Program-made: the position numbers and the translations under genes
Notes under the pieces: model-generated
Told to the model about the DNA's origin: nothing
Databases searched by the model: none
What the model saw: the letters and a program-made list of their open reading frames with translations, nothing else
Virus record (IMG/VR): IMGVR_UViG_3300030943_000055
Length of the DNA: 42,474 nucleotides
Direction: 5' to 3' (one strand)
Origin: a virus
Shown here: positions 17,208-25,484 of the stretch, in pieces
Layout: each line of letters starts with the position of its first letter
How positions within the stretch are numbered: the stretch's first letter is position 1

Positions 17208-17498
17208 CTATCCGTAATATTCCCTTAATAATCGTTTACTTATATCGTGACTAACACGTTTACCTGTTCCCATTGGGTCGTAGGCTATTACTATGTTCTT
17301 GTATGCTATGCTCTTGATTCCGATTGGAGTATGAAACCTACCATATCGACCAGTTGCACTACTCCCTGGAGTACCCCCAGCGTATACACAGATGATTGCA
17401 CCTGCTTTGCTTCCCCAGACACACACATCTCCTGGGTGAATTACTGCTCCATACTTATCTCTTTTATTGAGTGAATACAATAGTCGGTTCTTTTCCAT
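17208..17498 (-). CDS. hypothetical protein (96 aa)
   Basis: ORF with RBS GAAGGAAA, tightly packed next to the Pnkp gene. Confidence 0.6.
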   Translation of the reverse strand: MEKNRLLYSLNKRDKYGAVIHPGDVCVWGSKAGAIICVYAGGTPGSSATGRYGRFHTPIGIKSIAYKNIVIAYDPMGTGKRVSHDISKRLLREYYG

Positions 17499-17500
17499 TA

Positions 17501-18415
17501 TTAGAAGTTTCCTTCAGCTACTTGGAAACACTTGAGACCAATTCTCCTCCACATATCTACTACACGGTTTCGGTCATCAAGTACAAACTTAACATTGAAT
17601 CGTGGTTCTACATGTGTGCGGAATAGTCGTTCTTTAACTATTGAATCTTCGAGTTGTTTACCTTTGTCATCAACATCACTGTTGAGTCGAGTGTAAAGCT
17701 CATCATATTCTACGTTGTTTGCTTTCAACCATTCTTCTGTAACTTCTCGGTGGTCTTCGTTACGTCCAGTAAGGATAATAACTTTGTAGCCGTGGTCATA
17801 CATCATAGCGGTGACTACTGATACTGCATCATCTAGTGAATCGTTCATAGCTCGGCTTGCGTCATAAGGACTGCGACCATCTGCGATGTGTGCTAGTGTG
17901 CCATCAATATCAACAATGATAGCTTCTTCTTTATTGTCATCATATGCGATAACTGCAGGCGGCGGTACTAAATACCTATCGTGCATAGCGTAGATTACCT
18001 TATCAGGTACTGGCTTGTCACGTAATTGGTTACGCCTAATGCATTCTTTAACAGATACATCAAAGAACTTCTCTTCGTAAAACGTTTCAAAAACTATTGC
18101 TAGATTCTTGAATGTCTCACTGTGTTTAGGGTCGAGGTTAGTATCATCTACTACCACGTTCTGACCCTGAGTCAATGCTCGGACGATAACATCATCACGG
18201 AGCTTCAGGACAAACTTCTCGTTATCCTTACTAAACTTACTATTGTGTAACATGGCACGTAAGTCATCTTTGTTCACACGAACCCACCCTTTATTCACCA
18301 GCTCCCTAGCGTATGTGGTCTTACCAGAACCTGGCAGACCTTTTAACACTAGTAGTGTAGGATGCATTTGTGCGACTTGTCGTTTAACCTTTTCAGGTTT
18401 GGTCGCTGTGTCCAT
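17501..18415 (-). CDS. polynucleotide 5'-kinase / 3'-phosphatase (T4 Pnkp-like)
   Basis: N-terminal P-loop LKGLPGSGKTTYAREL. C-terminal HAD motif IIVDIDGTLAH. Same domain order and size as T4 Pnkp. Confidence 0.85.
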   Translation of the reverse strand: MDTATKPEKVKRQVAQMHPTLLVLKGLPGSGKTTYARELVNKGWVRVNKDDLRAMLHNSKFSKDNEKFVLKLRDDVIVRALTQGQNVVVDDTNLDPKHSETFKNLAIVFETFYEEKFFDVSVKECIRRNQLRDKPVPDKVIYAMHDRYLVPPPAVIAYDDNKEEAIIVDIDGTLAHIADGRSPYDASRAMNDSLDDAVSVVTAMMYDHGYKVIILTGRNEDHREVTEEWLKANNVEYDELYTRLNSDVDDKGKQLEDSIVKERLFRTHVEPRFNVKFVLDDRNRVVDMWRRIGLKCFQVAEGNF

Positions 18416-18548
18416 CTAATTTCCCTCTTAATTCTTCAAGTTTTCTTTTATTCTCTCCACTATTAAATGGATAGTGAAACCATGCTGCACCTTTACTCGC
18501 AATGCTGTACACAACATTAGGTATTGGAAACTTCTTCTTCCCCTGCAT
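18393..18548 (-). CDS. hypothetical small protein (51 aa; the track ORF extends to 18578)
   Basis: TAGGAG RBS precedes the internal ATG (MQGKKKFPIP...). Confidence 0.45.
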   Translation of the reverse strand: MQGKKKFPIPNVVYSIASKGAAWFHYPFNSGENKRKLEELRGKLDGHSDQT

Positions 18549-18649
18549 GTAAACTCCTATATATAGCTTGCCGAGCAAAGTGGTCTTCTCTTAAATAAGT
18601 TGACCATCTCTACTCAGATTCTACCGTTAATTGTATTACCGTAACACCG

Positions 18650-19168
18650 TTAGTTTCTTGGCGTTGTTCGTACTGCAATTCTGGTTTCTTCGGACGTTCC
18701 ATCTACTGGCAACCCTCGCAATTCAGCAAGTCCTGTGGGTCGATGATACTCGTCAGTTGTTGTATCTTCTTGGAGTCCCCGATGTCCTTCGGGTCGATTT
18801 GGCTCATCACTTGTTCTATCTGCTTCAACATCTGGTCGGTCTGTTCCTGGGTCATATTCTTTTGCCTCGATTAGCTTTTGATTGTTGTAGTCGTTATCGA
18901 GTCTGTCAGCAACTAATGTAGCGTAACCCGCTATGTCCCTCCATGAGTCAGAGTAATGTGGGTCTCCATTGATGATACGTGCCAACTTATTAACAATCAT
19001 ATTGATTGCTTCAAGTTCGTCAACATAAAAATCGAATCGAGTTTTACCTGTGACTTGCATTCCAAACTCAATTACTTGATGTAACCCCTGAGCTATTCCT
19101 GCTTGGTTTATGAATGCACCGTAGCGTGTGCCACGTTCTTTCAATATTTCGTCTATGCTTTGAACCAT
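18650..19168 (-). CDS. helical phage protein (ERGxxYG...DSWRDIAGYATL type) with a disordered acidic/Pro-rich tail
   Basis: AGGAGG RBS. From memory, the N-terminal 100 aa resemble a widespread MazG-like / DUF-type phage domain. The C-terminal 70 aa are low complexity. Confidence 0.5.
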   Translation of the reverse strand: MVQSIDEILKERGTRYGAFINQAGIAQGLHQVIEFGMQVTGKTRFDFYVDELEAINMIVNKLARIINGDPHYSDSWRDIAGYATLVADRLDNDYNNQKLIEAKEYDPGTDRPDVEADRTSDEPNRPEGHRGLQEDTTTDEYHRPTGLAELRGLPVDGTSEETRIAVRTTPRN

Positions 19169-19467
19169 TCGTGACCTCCTAATTCTAGTGAAATGCGAAC
19201 TGCAACTTCATCTTCAAACTCTTTTACCCATACAGTGAAACGACCTAAAGAAACTTGTGCTTCTCGGTATTCCTCTTCTGAGCCATAAAAGTATTCTAGT
19301 GCTGAACTTGTCAATCGTGAAATACAATCAACTAATTCACCATGTGTCGGAACGTGGTCTTCTCCGTAAGTCCAACCATAAAGGTTAAACAACGGTGCTG
19401 CCTGATTAGCAGCTGCGTCAATGTCTTTGTAAAGACGGTCTGTTGTGATTCTATCAAATACGCTCAT
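19153..19467 (-). CDS. hypothetical protein (104 aa)
   Basis: ORF with AAGGAG RBS. Confidence 0.6.
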   Translation of the reverse strand: MSVFDRITTDRLYKDIDAAANQAAPLFNLYGWTYGEDHVPTHGELVDCISRLTSSALEYFYGSEEEYREAQVSLGRFTVWVKEFEDEVAVRISLELGGHEWFKA

Positions 19468-19468
19468 A

Positions 19469-19642
19469 TTACTCCTTTACTGATTCTACTTCGTAAACAC
19501 CAGTGTTAGTGTGACAAACATCGCCAACCTGGATTAGTGCTGCACCACGAGTAATGATACTCTCATGTGGCTGTCCGTCTACATCTCCATGTAAAATGGT
19601 TTCTGTGATGTATGCGTTACTGATTTTCTGTACTGATTCCAT
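19469..19642 (-). CDS. hypothetical small protein (57 aa)
   Basis: Below the track cutoff. Translated by hand: MESVQKISNAYITETILHGDVDGQPHESIITRGAALIQVGDVCHTNTGVYEVESVKE. Fills the gap between neighbouring genes exactly. Confidence 0.5.
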   Translation of the reverse strand: MESVQKISNAYITETILHGDVDGQPHESIITRGAALIQVGDVCHTNTGVYEVESVKE

Positions 19643-20540
19643 TGATTTTTCCTTCCAATAGTTGTTCTTTATACCACTGGGCTAACCCAAATGTGGCGTA
19701 CTTCATAATATCTGATTTATAGATACTATAAAGTTGTTCTTTGATATTCTCTTGCTCTTCAGTATCTAAGTCAACATAGACCTCCTTAAGTAACAAACCA
19801 ATATCTTTAGGTGTACCAGTCAACTCTCCATTGTCTCGGAGGTGCTGTACTGCCTTATTCCATCGAGCCTCTGTACGATAATTCTCTTTCAAGACATCGA
19901 ACTTACCCTTACCAGTGTTTAGCTTAGACCAATCTTTCTGGTGTACTTCCTTAAATGCCTCTGTGACATATTTACCAGACATAACCGATAACGGAATCTG
20001 TCCAAGGAATAACCAATTCTTGTATGCCTTTACTACAACACCTTCAATCTTTTGTCCACCGAGATAGCTAACTGTGTCTTCTACCATATCTAGTATCGCA
20101 CTCTGGCTAATCTCACCCCTGAACAATAACGGAACTGGGTCAACATCTAGTTTATCTGACCATTCCTTGATTGAATCGTAGTTAAGATACTCATGTGTCT
20201 CGCTAACATATACACCAAACATTGCGAAGAAGTTTTTAGGCGTTCTATCGTATGCTAGTGTCGAGTGGCGTGGAGTTCCCAGTGTTTCACCGTAGAACCA
20301 AATACCCTCTGGAAGCCTGTCTTCTATCGAATGCACATATTCCCATACTGGTCGGAATAGTTTATCTGGCTCTTCAAACTCACGTCCTTTTGAGCGAGTA
20401 ACAACTACTCCATCTATTTTACCAAATGAAAACTGTGAACCGTCAAGTTTCTCAGTAATCTCCACCTCACCTTCAAAAAGGTCAAGGATTTGTTTGTCCC
20501 CGATATGTAGAATCTTAGGGAAAGCTGCTGTTTTACTCAC
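19617..20540 (-). CDS. ATP-dependent RNA ligase (Rnl-type)
   Basis: Nucleotidyl-transferase motif I EITEKLDGSQFSF. 307 aa, with no obvious OB/DNA-ligase extension. GTG start with GAGGA RBS. Neighbours are Pnkp and a ligase-associated NTase. Confidence 0.7.
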   Translation of the reverse strand: MSKTAAFPKILHIGDKQILDLFEGEVEITEKLDGSQFSFGKIDGVVVTRSKGREFEEPDKLFRPVWEYVHSIEDRLPEGIWFYGETLGTPRHSTLAYDRTPKNFFAMFGVYVSETHEYLNYDSIKEWSDKLDVDPVPLLFRGEISQSAILDMVEDTVSYLGGQKIEGVVVKAYKNWLFLGQIPLSVMSGKYVTEAFKEVHQKDWSKLNTGKGKFDVLKENYRTEARWNKAVQHLRDNGELTGTPKDIGLLLKEVYVDLDTEEQENIKEQLYSIYKSDIMKYATFGLAQWYKEQLLEGKINGISTENQ

Positions 20541-21267
20541 TTAAATCCTCATACTTCCATTTATATTCCTGTAACTCTTCAGTGTATGCTCTGTAAATGA
20601 AATCTTCTATCCATTCAATGTCTGGTTTCCAGTCCATAACTGGGCTGATAGACTCTGCGGTTGCAACACGCCTGGACATTTCATCCATAGCTGCTACAAT
20701 TTCTGGTGTGAATGGTCGAATCTCTTCAAGCGTCATAGGCTTAATCTTCTTCAATAGAGGATAGATGTCAGCTTCTGCAATGTTGCATTTGAATTGACCA
20801 GTAAGTAAGAATTGTTCACATTGCCACATGACACGTAAGAATGCTACTGCGAACTTAGCTGTGCGTTGTTGACCAAGAACTCCTACGTCTTCAAAGTTGT
20901 AGAACTTGTTCCATTGATTGTGAGCATAACCTCTACTGGCTGCAACGAATCGTTTCGTATCAATAAACTTTTTCCAGTTGGCTCTAAGTTCAGCGTGTAT
21001 CGGAGTCGTTTCAATGATTTCGTCTGAAAAGAAGACTTCGAGGATTGTTGCGTTCCCATGTACCGCTTGCTTACAGAAATCTGCGAGTTCGTAACTCGTA
21101 TTGTCTTCATCACCCTCTATCCACGTAGTGTTCTTAAGAGTTTTGAAAGGACTAAGTTTATCCTGTAAGCTGTGTATATGTATGCCACGAAAATCGTAAT
21201 CACTAGTGCCCGTATTAAGCCCATGTAATCTACTCCCTACTAGTACTTTAGCTATTTGTGTTGTCAT
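20533..21267 (-). CDS. Pol-beta superfamily nucleotidyltransferase of the RNA-ligase-associated (RlaP-like) type
   Basis: N-terminus VLVGSRLHGLNTGTSDYDFRGIHI is the GS...D.D NTase signature. Overlaps the ligase gene by 8 nt. The family name is from memory and needs HMM confirmation. Confidence 0.6.
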   Translation of the reverse strand: MTTQIAKVLVGSRLHGLNTGTSDYDFRGIHIHSLQDKLSPFKTLKNTTWIEGDEDNTSYELADFCKQAVHGNATILEVFFSDEIIETTPIHAELRANWKKFIDTKRFVAASRGYAHNQWNKFYNFEDVGVLGQQRTAKFAVAFLRVMWQCEQFLLTGQFKCNIAEADIYPLLKKIKPMTLEEIRPFTPEIVAAMDEMSRRVATAESISPVMDWKPDIEWIEDFIYRAYTEELQEYKWKYEDLSE

Positions 21268-21979: not shown

Positions 21980-22216
21980 TTACCCCTTTGCTGCTATAGC
22001 AAGTAATCTACCAGGATTGAAACTGATTGTGAAATCTTCCCAGTCGTTCAACACCGTGATAGGTACTATCATAGCACCCGATTTTTCTATTACTTCTTGA
22101 CGTAGCTTCGGGTTTTCGCTAATGTCAACAAGTTCGTACTTAACACCTTTCATATCAAATAGCTTGGCTACTGCCTTGCAATATGAACATGTTGGTGTCT
22201 TATAAATTGTTATCAT
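21980..22216 (-). CDS. glutaredoxin / NrdH-like redoxin
   Basis: MITIYKTPTCSYCKAVAKL: a CxxC active site after beta1, with the cis-Pro motif IVPIT. 78 aa. Confidence 0.8.
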   Translation of the reverse strand: MITIYKTPTCSYCKAVAKLFDMKGVKYELVDISENPKLRQEVIEKSGAMIVPITVLNDWEDFTISFNPGRLLAIAAKG

Positions 22217-22560: not shown

Positions 22561-22749
22561 TTACGCTGCTTCGCCTGGAAGCGCTCCGTAACCGCCTAGT
22601 ATATCATTAACTAGGTGAACTTGTCGTTCTAGGTCTGAGTAACGTTCTAGCAGAAAGCCTTTATATTCTGTTAATTGTTCAGGATTGAATCCTTCTAAAG
22701 TCTCTTGTTCTGTCATTCCTGGCAAAACTTCTTGTGGACTAAACTCCAT
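22561..22749 (-). CDS. hypothetical acidic protein (62 aa)
   Basis: ORF in operon context. Confidence 0.5.
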   Translation of the reverse strand: MEFSPQEVLPGMTEQETLEGFNPEQLTEYKGFLLERYSDLERQVHLVNDILGGYGALPGEAA

Positions 22750-23485
22750 TTACAACCCTTCCTATCTTTTTAAGTGATGCTTCTGAACACCATCCTCCAC
22801 AATTCTGACATTGATAACGTTGTGTTTGACCCGAACGTTTCTTGTTAAAGCCACGCTTATGCAAGTTATCGCTACCACACTTAGGACAAATACCATCAGA
22901 CTGATGAATATCCCCAAGATTAGGGTGACTAGCCATAAAAGGAAGCATCCTAAGATAAATAGCTTCAAGAAGGTTAACATCTTGGTCGTTATATTTCTTA
23001 AGAAGTTTGACCGTTTTCTTGGAAGGATTCCCAGACATGTAATCGTCTTCGAGGTTTGCATATCCTATGCTTTCCTTCCTACCAAGTCCAAGAAAGTACC
23101 CAAGGTCATCCAAGGAGTTGCTGTCGAATCTGAACCAGCGTTTTGCCTCATGTTTAGTATCAACGGTTTTTCGTGGTTTTGGAGGTAAGATACCTTCAGT
23201 GACAAAGAACCTGTTAGACATCTTATCATCAAAGCTGCCACCATTGTGTGCGATAGTAATATCCGCACCATCCAGTAACGCTTGTAAGCTCTGGACAAAA
23301 TCGTGATACGTTTTGAAATCGTACCGTGATACAAAATGGACATTCTTTTCCCCTAACTCTTTCCATGAATAACACATTAATTCTGATTGTTTGGTGAACT
23401 TAACCACCTTGAAGTCCCAGCGATTGCCGTAACCCTCTACTTGTGTACGACTAGTTTCCAGGTCGTATAAGATAATTCTACTCAT
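22739..23485 (-). CDS. DnaQ/PolB-type 3'-5' exonuclease with a C-terminal zinc ribbon
   Basis: ExoI ILYDLETS and ExoII IAHNGGSFDDKM. C-terminal zinc ribbon CPKCGS...CQNCGG. Confidence 0.7.
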   Translation of the reverse strand: MSRIILYDLETSRTQVEGYGNRWDFKVVKFTKQSELMCYSWKELGEKNVHFVSRYDFKTYHDFVQSLQALLDGADITIAHNGGSFDDKMSNRFFVTEGILPPKPRKTVDTKHEAKRWFRFDSNSLDDLGYFLGLGRKESIGYANLEDDYMSGNPSKKTVKLLKKYNDQDVNLLEAIYLRMLPFMASHPNLGDIHQSDGICPKCGSDNLHKRGFNKKRSGQTQRYQCQNCGGWCSEASLKKIGRVVNGV

Positions 23486-23683: not shown

Positions 23684-23874
23684 CTGCTAACCAATTCGCC
23701 TGAATGCAGTACGGTTCGTACCGAAACACCTGGTGATTAAATCCAGTACCATTAAGACAGGACACGAGAGTACTCGTATGGTTAAAGGATAATATACTAC
23801 GGAACTGTCATCAACAGCTCTACGGAAATCTCGTTTGGCTGACTTACGCCTGATTAGCATGTGTATTGTATTTA

Positions 23875-23968
23875 TGGCTGCGATGCCAGGTATCGAACCT
23901 GGGCATTATCGTGTACTTTGATAGTCAAGGTTTATTAGACCTCCGCTCTGCCGCTGAGCTACATCGCA
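23875..23968 (-). tRNA. tRNA, class-II-like (24-nt variable region), anticodon AAT (would read Ile AUU), CCA encoded
   Basis: Hand fold: acceptor TGCGATG/CATCGCA; D arm GCTC-AGCGGCA-GAGC; anticodon arm GAGGT-CTAATAA-ACCTT; variable region GACTATCAAAGTACACGATAATGC; T arm CCAGG-TTCGATA-CCTGG; then G-CCA. Confidence 0.75.
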
Positions 23969-24105: not shown

Positions 24106-24187
24106 TGGTGGAGTATGAGAGAATCGAACTCTCGTCCCAAGGGTTTCCAACTCGTGGATTTACGCCTGGTCTAACCATTGATACCCC
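24106..24187 (-). ncRNA. tRNA-like domain (acceptor + T arm, alanine identity elements, non-canonical body), CCA encoded
   Basis: GGGGTAT/ATACTCC acceptor with G3:U70, then A73 and CCA. T arm GAGAG-TTCGATT-CTCTC preceded by GGAC. No 5-bp/7-nt anticodon hairpin can be drawn in the 47 nt between them. Confidence 0.55.
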
Positions 24188-25102: not shown

Positions 25103-25157
25103 ATTATATCAAACTCGAGCCAAAAAGTCAAGGGCTTTTTACAATAAAGTGTTGTAG
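25103..25157 (-). promoter_or_regulatory. consensus promoter P1 with upstream CTACAACAC box
   Basis: Minus-sense CTACAACAC (25157-25149), 17 nt, TTGACT (25131-25126), 17 nt, TGaTATAAT (-10 at 25108-25103). Confidence 0.75.
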
Positions 25158-25160
25158 TCT

Positions 25161-25484
25161 TTACATATTGCTCATCCAGTACATAAAATCGTACTGTGCT
25201 ACCGTGAACTTTGGTTCAAAATATCTGCTACCCTTCCAGTTGTTGCATTTAGCATGTTCTGGATGTAGGTTAGTCGGGTCGAATACACGAGACGGTTCTC
25301 TTGACCTGGAGTAGATATGACCGAGCGTGACTTCCTCGGCAATGATGAACCTTCCGCAATGTCCACAGACGTAACAACCGTTATCGAGTGGTGGATTTTG
25401 TTTCTTCCATTTCTGGATGAACTTGAGCCATTCATGTGTTTTGTCCCCCATTGAGTTTAAACTGCTATTATAGTAACCATTCAT
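25161..25484 (-). CDS. HNH endonuclease (107 aa)
   Basis: CYVCGHCG...LGHIYSRS...NLHPEHAKCNNWKG matches the HNH/zinc-finger pattern. Confidence 0.75.
   Translation of the reverse strand: MNGYYNSSLNSMGDKTHEWLKFIQKWKKQNPPLDNGCYVCGHCGRFIIAEEVTLGHIYSRSREPSRVFDPTNLHPEHAKCNNWKGSRYFEPKFTVAQYDFMYWMSNM

Follow-up and report, generated by a model that had tools for sequence, protein, structure and literature searches.

Predicted heal-fill-seal RNA repair cassette of Pnkp, Rnl2-like ligase and RlaP nucleotidyltransferase in a podovirus-like phage genome

The IMG/VR virus record IMGVR_UViG_3300030943_000055, a stretch of 42,474 nucleotides (nt) referred to here as the window, represents essentially the whole genome of a podovirus-like phage of ~42 kb. 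A single leftward operon of 3.8 kb encodes a T4-type polynucleotide kinase-phosphatase (Pnkp), an ATP-dependent RNA ligase, and a Pol-beta nucleotidyltransferase of the RlaP family, interleaved with small open reading frames (ORFs). These three enzymes probably form a heal-fill-seal RNA repair pathway that acts against host ribotoxins, with tRNAs cut by anticodon nucleases as the likeliest targets. From family membership, intact motifs, tight packing of the genes, and the pairing of ligase and Pnkp across a phage family, we infer the activities of the enzymes, the order of the steps, the tRNA substrate, and the counter-defence role. The original prediction, made by a model from the letters of the DNA, had read the three genes as an RNA repair trio; the ORF list and Pfam retrieved genes and motifs where it had placed them on the minus strand, and the reading holds on family, motif, and fold evidence. 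In transcription order, the trio is as follows:

20533..21267, minus strand, RlaP-family Pol-beta nucleotidyltransferase of 244 amino acids (aa), matched by PF10127, first of the trio
19617..20540, minus strand, ATP-dependent RNA ligase of 307 aa with a GTG start, assigned from PF09414, an AlphaFold2 (AF2) model, and Foldseek
17501..18415, minus strand, Pnkp, a T4-type polynucleotide 5'-kinase/3'-phosphatase of 304 aa, assigned from Pfam, PHROG, and PDB matches

Pnkp is composed of an N-terminal P-loop kinase (GLPGSGKT, aa 26-33) and a C-terminal HAD phosphatase (VDIDGT, aa 168-173). Pfam retrieved AAA_33 (E 9e-20) and HAD_PNKP PF25109 (E 3.8e-45, with 142 of 143 profile positions covered), and PHROG returned phrog_505, “polynucleotide kinase” (E 1e-88). 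The best PDB match, over the full length, is the bacterial Pnkp1 4XRP (E 5.6e-45), and residues 22-304 align with residues 5-301 of T4 Pnk (1LTQ, E 6e-43). In this alignment, NKDDLR of the phage protein corresponds to NRDDYR of T4, which holds the kinase Asp/Arg pair (T4 D35/R38), and the phosphatase motifs VDIDGT, LTGR, and LDDR are collinear with those of T4 Pnk. These features identify the protein as a full-length T4-type kinase-phosphatase with predicted activity on RNA ends.

The ligase displays motif I (EKLDGS) at aa 30-35 and matches PF09414 RNA_ligase (E 5e-20). All 36 aligned homologues match PF09414, and 13 of them weakly match PF09511, the Rnl1 family, to which the window ligase gave no match at E <= 0.1. 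DNA-ligase Pfam families were matched by none of the 36 homologues at E <= 0.01. The AF2 model, made with 36 homologues (pLDDT 74), presents a nucleotidyltransferase (NTase) domain at ~aa 20-200 followed by five helices at aa 214-295; the C terminus of the model is thus helical and contains no OB barrel. The top Foldseek match is T4 Rnl2 (2hvr, E 1e-10, full length, 324 columns), followed by Naegleria Rnl5, Rnl3, Rnl1, and Trl1, and RNA ligases hold the top 40 ranks. Rnl1 structures are found at rank 28 or lower (E 3e-6 or weaker), and the first DNA ligase is found at E 4e-4, over the NTase domain only.

Residues K31, R49, E85, E166, K171, K190, R226, and D257 are invariant in the 36 homologues. 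The first three correspond by motif position, not by hhalign, to K35, R55, and E99 of T4 Rnl2, whereas E166, K171, and K190 (motifs IV and V) were placed by hhalign on E204, K209, and K225 (E 0.036). In the same weak alignment (E 0.036, probability 1.4%), R226 and D257 fall on R266 and D292, the essential Arg/Asp pair of the T4 Rnl2 C-domain. The T4 Rnl2 sequence used for hhalign was checked against 2HVQ (E 5e-226). Because PF09414 is matched throughout the homologues, no OB domain is present, and RNA ligases lead the structural matches, the enzyme is classified as a putative divergent Rnl2-like RNA ligase, neither Rnl1-like nor a DNA ligase. The earlier proposal that it would be an RNA rather than a DNA ligase is borne out by the lack of an OB domain and of DNA-ligase families and by the RNA ligases among the best structural matches; the parallel that had been drawn with T4 Rnl1 gives way, on Foldseek and the hhalign motifs, to one with Rnl2.

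The nucleotidyltransferase matches PF10127 (E 3e-17; 63.5 bits, cut-off 23), with aa 8-154 aligned to positions 24-165 of the 249 in the profile, and phrog_388, “nucleotidyltransferase” (E 6e-30); a search against PDB sequences matched nothing useful. It opens with the signature GSRLHG...SDYDFRG at aa 11-27. In the alignment of homologues, no variation is seen at G11, S12, D23, and D25, and an acidic residue (D/E) occupies position 55 in eight of nine sequences, including two of the three at 21-27% identity (those two at 26-27%). The predicted catalytic residues are G11-S12, D23, D25, and D55; three strictly conserved aspartates are described for RlaP in a preprint (PMC12776372). The name RlaP, which the original prediction had given, fits the PF10127 match and was traced to Burroughs and Aravind 2016, as cited in PMC7824862 and PMC12776372.

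As recounted in PMC7824862, comparative genomics linked RlaP to phage RNA ligases, and a refill after RloC-type damage was proposed. In the 2025 preprint on the Pseudomonas enzymes, RlaPs added one to two nucleoside monophosphates (NMP) to RNA 3'-OH ends and did not use DNA as a substrate (PMC12776372). They favoured the 5' half of cleaved tRNA and the broken anticodon-loop end of a tRNA mimic, partly restored aminoacylation of tRNA short of one anticodon-loop nucleotide, and labelled both tRNA-sized and rRNA-sized species in total E. coli RNA (PMC12776372). According to the authors, 5'-phosphate ligases are a better match than RtcB for the products of RlaP (PMC12776372). The window protein probably belongs to a different RlaP cluster from the Pseudomonas enzymes. 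Of the proposal that the NTase could rebuild damaged 3' ends, the part that agrees with these data is a refill of 1-2 nt at the 3' end of the 5' tRNA half (PMC12776372), and the rebuilding of CCA ends is not retained.

The RlaP and ligase genes overlap by 8 nt, as originally reported, in the octamer GTGAGTAA, which holds both the GTG start of the ligase and the TAA stop of RlaP. A GAGGA Shine-Dalgarno sequence lies 5 nt upstream of this overlap, and the two genes are predicted from this arrangement to be translationally coupled. The complete transcription order is RlaP, ligase, 57-aa ORF, 104-aa ORF, DUF6378, 51-aa ORF, Pnkp, and 96-aa ORF. The ORFs of the cassette overlap or lie a few bases apart, except for a gap of ~100 nt after the DUF6378 ORF, and a site scan of the window found no strong terminator-like site inside the block.

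The conservation of the cassette was examined in a comparative set of 79 IMG/VR loci, a further 3 from protein look-ups, and 17 contigs of metagenome-assembled genomes (MAGs); iterated profiles from every ORF of the region were run on the IMG/VR and look-up loci, and the 26 loci with a ligase at least 58% identical are referred to as related loci. Ligase and Pnkp are both present, within ~2.5 kb of each other, in all 26. RlaP is found in 7 of the 26, at two insertion points, where it adjoins the ligase or lies within ~0.5 kb. It is absent from L004 and L006, in which the ligase is 88% identical and abutted by an upstream 100-aa gene, and in L011 it is located downstream of the ligase, not upstream. 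Wherever RlaP is present, it is 81-88% identical, compared with 35-64% for its neighbours in L011, and its identity at third codon positions is 46% versus 37-40% in the neighbours. This pattern is attributed mainly to what appears to be strong purifying selection on an optional gene. Recent lateral transfer of RlaP is not claimed, as the third-codon identity is barely above that of the neighbours. The surroundings of the nearest ligase and RlaP homologues in cultured phages (Bacillus phage Bastille and Gordonia phage Pipp) were uninformative.

Phage RNA repair is the classic counter to tRNA-cutting defences, and tRNA-cutting and RNase defences are now known to be widespread (PrrC, RloC, PARIS, retron-PtuAB, Cas13, and HEPN toxins). 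RNA cut by metal-independent RNases ends in a 2',3'-cyclic or 3' phosphate on one side of the break and in a 5'-OH on the other. At such a break, the HAD domain of Pnkp would strip the 3' phosphate to a 3'-OH and the P-loop kinase would phosphorylate the 5'-OH. After cuts that trim nucleotides, as with RloC-type nucleases, RlaP would add one to two NMP to the 3'-OH of the 5' fragment. The Rnl2-like ligase would then join the 3'-OH to the 5'-phosphate, using ATP and forming lysyl-AMP on K31. The product of each enzyme would in this way be the substrate of the next.

The cassette is a clear example of an already known toolkit, not a new kind of system, and leaves current understanding unchanged; the heal-fill-seal combination was predicted by comparative genomics in 2016, according to PMC7824862. 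The compact operon pairs RlaP with a 5'-phosphate ligase and a T4-type Pnkp, a chemically matching set, unlike the RtcB operons. Moreover, natural controls are available among close relatives, some with RlaP and some without it, and the cassette would be convenient for the reconstitution of heal-fill-seal repair in vitro.

In comparison with T4, the two Pnkp enzymes are full-length homologues with the same domain order and catalytic motifs, the ligase architecture is common to T4 Rnl2 and the window ligase, and in both phages a 5'-phosphate ligase seals, or in the window would seal, the ends healed by Pnkp. In contrast, the T4 enzyme for tRNA-Lys repair is Rnl1 with its tRNA-binding C-domain, whereas the sole ligase of the window is Rnl2-like, at ~17-18% identity. 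The repair genes of T4 are scattered over a 169-kb genome, while the window trio is contained in one 3.8-kb operon of a ~42-kb genome with RlaP coupled to the ligase. T4 also encodes a RlaP homologue, NrdC.11 (PMC12776372).

The closest arrangement was observed in Podoviridae sp. ctuNt529 (MW202692.1, L100; Manatee Spring, freshwater; ~45 kb), in which RlaP, ligase, and Pnkp follow in the same order with overlapping frames, at 59% (RlaP), 24% (ligase), and 43% (Pnkp) identity to the window proteins. There, the three genes are directly adjacent, without interleaved small ORFs, and the ligase belongs to another clade; the record is uncharacterised and machine-annotated. That an unrelated podovirus has the trio in neighbouring genes with overlapping frames argues for the RNA repair reading. 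The ligase of this phage (6675-7601, 308 aa) has an NTase domain and a helical tail, the same layout as the window ligase, and its label “ATP-dependent DNA ligase” is probably a mis-annotation.

Among cellular systems, the RtcB-RlaP-RtcA operons of Pseudomonas fluorescens and P. aeruginosa contain the only biochemically studied RlaPs, likewise beside an RNA ligase and an end-modifying enzyme, and their proposed role is the refill, before ligation, of nucleotides cut out by “smart” ribotoxins. RtcB, a 3'-phosphate ligase, is ill-suited to the 3'-OH product of RlaP according to the authors, whereas the phage has a 5'-phosphate ligase and Pnkp. In the bacterial Pnkp1-Rnl-Hen1 complex (4XRP/4XRU), Pnkp1 is likewise T4-type, and its partner ligase is a polypeptide of its own. 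The window cassette showed no Hen1 methyltransferase, and the ligase of this complex is not in the best 50 structural matches to the window ligase.

Upstream of the cassette, the same strand encodes a tRNA-like region that begins 2.6 kb away, preceded by a promoter-like site:

25103..25131, minus strand, promoter-like site (TTGACT, 17-nt spacer, TG-extended TATAAT), 11 of 12 matches in a consensus scan only
24106-24187, minus strand, mimic of the tRNA-like domain of transfer-messenger RNA (tmRNA), 82 nt, Rfam tmRNA 43 bits against a gathering threshold of 47
23878-23968, minus strand, 91-nt tRNA with anticodon AAU and a 21-nt extra arm, Rfam 54 bits, tRNA-Ile in ARAGORN
23690-23866, minus strand, structured non-coding RNA of ~180 nt, immediately downstream of the aberrant 91-nt tRNA

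The promoter-like site may head a leftward block that runs through the tRNA-like region into the cassette. In relatives, the interval between this site and the cassette contains a variable island of 0-9 canonical tRNA genes. The acceptor stem of the 82-nt mimic has 7 bp and includes G3:U70, the alanine identity pair; a D-loop-like GGUUAGAC and a T-arm are also present, and the 3' end, ...CUCCACCA, is encoded. A short irregular hairpin takes the place of the mRNA-like and pseudoknot part, and without an mRNA-like part there is no tag reading frame. The mimic is kept in at least 15 related loci, with compensatory changes in 13 of 21 pairs and G3:U70 in 14 of 16 sequences, and a limited literature search found no description of a phage RNA like it.

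The ~180-nt element has no Rfam match. Identity across L004-L010 and L027 is 93-97% over its first 70 nt, higher than for any protein of the region, and of the 25 pairs given by RNAalifold, 7 show compensatory changes. An insert of variable length between the hairpins argues against coding, and the 57-aa ORF at 23687-23860 that overlaps the element is probably spurious. None of the related loci has a nucleotide match to the 91-nt tRNA; at its position, relatives have canonical tRNAs (Asp, Met, Pro, Tyr, and Trp), nine in the case of L011. The 82-nt mimic and the ~180-nt RNA were judged more unusual than the cassette.

The distance of 2.6 kb and the common direction of the tRNA-like cluster and the cassette agree with the original prediction. 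The single tRNA-protection region that it had derived from them is an idea to which the upstream RNAs could lend support through synteny and shared direction only, the tRNA island being variable. In a wider version of this idea, the cassette would be one arm of a larger block conserved in this uncultured podovirus family, made of the hypervariable tRNA island, the 82-nt mimic, the ~180-nt RNA, and the divergent ligase clade without the second motif V lysine, that serves to keep translation running. This is conceivable, and we put it forward as a speculative proposal. If true, the phage would supply tRNAs, repair them, and also manipulate ribosome rescue, and RlaP would be a swappable add-on against anticodon nucleases that also excise nucleotides.

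Several observations weigh against a tRNA repair pathway. The identity of the ligase to T4 Rnl2 is only ~17-18%, the second lysine of motif V (T4 Rnl2 K227) is replaced by V192, and the PDB yielded only chance matches to the ligase in sequence and profile searches. Rnl2-type enzymes favour nicks in duplex RNA, and their in vivo role is unsettled. RlaP is missing from 19 of the 26 related loci, which makes the fill step optional. Where identity to the ligase falls below 50%, the homologues are usually solitary among replication genes, most of them lack a T4-type Pnkp within 8 kb, and 58 more distant phage loci showed no neighbour of the ligase that recurs; since distant ligases are usually without Pnkp, the ligase clade is not bound to RNA repair. 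Furthermore, a host scan with the genome returned only assorted environmental MAG contigs and identified no host, so that no matching nuclease can be named. On the other side, besides the trio of MW202692.1, the tRNA island located a few kilobases upstream on the same strand in relatives speaks for tRNA repair.

The same enzymes might instead perform general RNA repair, on mRNA, rRNA, tmRNA, or phage small RNAs. Textbook end chemistry would be the same if the cutters were toxin-antitoxin RNases, HEPN proteins, Cas13, or type III CRISPR accessory RNases; an Rnl2-like ligase, without the tRNA-binding C-domain of Rnl1, suits duplex-held nicks, and the rRNA-sized species labelled by RlaP (PMC12776372) point the same way. 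We nevertheless regard this as unlikely, given that the best-documented phage precedent is the repair of tRNA-Lys by T4, that RlaP favours the broken anticodon-loop end of a tRNA mimic (PMC12776372), and that the tRNA island adjoins the cassette in relatives. A further departure from RNA repair would have the ligase and Pnkp act on DNA or RNA-DNA junctions in replication and repair, by sealing nicks with an RNA 3' end or healing 3'-phosphate/5'-OH breaks made by host nucleases, and would make the RNA assignment an artefact of family names. It agrees with the neighbourhood of the distant ligase homologues, which includes DNA polymerase, clamp-loader, single-stranded DNA-binding protein, and recombinase genes, with the label of the MW202692.1 homologue, with the textbook activity of T4 Pnkp on DNA ends, and with the finding that neither another ligase, including a DNA ligase, nor a DNA polymerase was recognised among the window ORFs scanned. 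The missing OB domain, the count of 0 of 36 for DNA-ligase Pfam families, and a Foldseek E-value that favours RNA over DNA ligases by six orders of magnitude nevertheless make it a poor candidate, as does the coupled partner RlaP, which acts in vitro on RNA and not on DNA (PMC12776372).

The cassette could also mature or maintain the phage's own tRNA-like RNAs, namely the 91-nt tRNA and the tmRNA-domain mimic, and so serve processing and not repair. Both RNAs lie 2.6-2.9 kb upstream on the same strand, and the tmRNA-like element accompanies ligase and Pnkp in at least 15 related loci; co-occurrence within one syntenic phage family is, however, weak evidence. Relatives conserve the cassette but not the aberrant tRNA, which is found in this genome only; the trio of MW202692.1 has no tRNA genes in the 11 kb examined, and neither a splicing endonuclease nor an intron-like structure was found. 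Processing of the phage's own RNAs is thus highly improbable, and repair of tRNAs cut by anticodon nucleases is retained as the preferred function.

The ORFs that accompany the trio are the following:

19469..19642, minus strand, 57-aa ORF, sharing 26 nt with the 3' end of the ligase gene
19153..19467, minus strand, 104-aa ORF
18650..19168, minus strand, DUF6378 ORF, 172 aa as read (PF19905, E 4e-6; phrog_16943, E 7e-21)
18703..18855, minus strand, 50-aa ORF ending ...IIDPQDLLNCEGCQ, out of frame inside the DUF6378 tail
18393..18548, minus strand, 51-aa ORF (MQGKKKFPIPNVVYSIASKG...) with its start at ATG 18548, overlapping the Pnkp start by 23 nt
17208..17498, minus strand, 96-aa ORF, beginning 2 nt past the Pnkp stop

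The five small ORFs of the original prediction are present, but a sixth (18703-18855) had been missed and the ORF at 18393 had been given as 61 aa. The latter most likely starts at ATG 18548 and encodes 51 aa, as judged from a GGAG ribosome-binding site and from its homologues, which are found only in the 10 closest loci and start at the equivalent Met. The suggestion that the small ORFs might be additional components found no support, and none of them could be tied to repair: DUF6378 is found elsewhere among replication genes, and the others are confined to the phage family.

The DUF6378 ORF comprises a core (aa 1 to ~95) and a low-complexity tail. It is present in 23 of the 26 related loci, nearly always between ligase and Pnkp. 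Its AF2 model is a four-helix bundle (pLDDT 89) without a fold match in the PDB, and in the viral structure library BFVD it matched DUF6378 and “Nmad1” (nucleotide modification associated domain 1) proteins. An assignment as a MazG-like pyrophosphatase was dropped in view of this confident four-helix model without a PDB fold match, and the resemblance in BFVD to phage HAD/Pnkp-phosphatase proteins (probability 0.57-0.9) was not strong enough to be used. In three of three unrelated phage contigs, DUF6378 lies among polymerase, helicase, nuclease, and recombinase genes, and all three lack Pnkp or ligase near it. Since DUF6378 occurs elsewhere without repair genes, its position in the window is no evidence for a repair role.

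The 50-aa ORF, whose C-terminal end is quoted as ...DPQDLLNCEGCQ, has no Pfam or PHROG match. A profile search retrieved it from 20 related loci, where with a single exception it lies between DUF6378 and Pnkp; in distant members, in which DUF6378 stops at ~95 aa, it is free-standing. The seeming conservation of the DUF6378 tail is, on this pattern, read as the shadow of the 50-aa ORF. In the L001 group, a glutaredoxin gene directly follows this ORF.

The remaining ORFs are narrowly distributed. The 57-aa ORF (19469) has a homologue in L010 only, 1 of the 26 related loci. The 104-aa ORF is found in the 10 closest loci (59-68% identity) and not in more distant family members, and has no Pfam, PHROG, or NCBIfam match. 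The 96-aa ORF is always downstream of Pnkp, in 22 of the 26 related loci and directly so in most. An exhaustive profile search of 1.84 billion representative proteins retrieved only 19 clusters, all of ~60-105 aa except a single long one (P0305), which is a repetitive surface protein and spurious. A word-indexed search likewise returned small proteins of this phage family only, to which the ORF appears confined.

In the genome as a whole, the minus strand carries every gene from 16.0 to 35.1 kb of the window. The portal is of the podovirus type, and the endolysin combines GH25 with a G5 domain. A nucleotide search against 50,697 phage records returned zero matches, which indicates that there is no close sequenced relative in culture collections, and homologues of the ligase number thousands in metagenomes, many on contigs of 40-46 kb. 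Upstream of the cassette, the following genes were recognised:

29323-30555, minus strand, Pif1-like helicase, a replication-type gene
27400-28701, minus strand, HIRAN-domain protein, a replication-type gene
25989-26507, minus strand, HNH/NUMOD4 homing-type endonuclease, a replication-type gene
25468-25896, minus strand, T7-type endonuclease I, a replication-type gene
22739-23485, minus strand, RNase H-superfamily protein (PF13482) with a C-terminal CxxC...CxxC zinc-ribbon-like tail
21980-22216, minus strand, glutaredoxin

Throughout the phage family, the genes for the RNase H-superfamily protein and the glutaredoxin are conserved in the interval that separates the tRNA island from the cassette, and in more distant family members the glutaredoxin gene lies directly before Pnkp.

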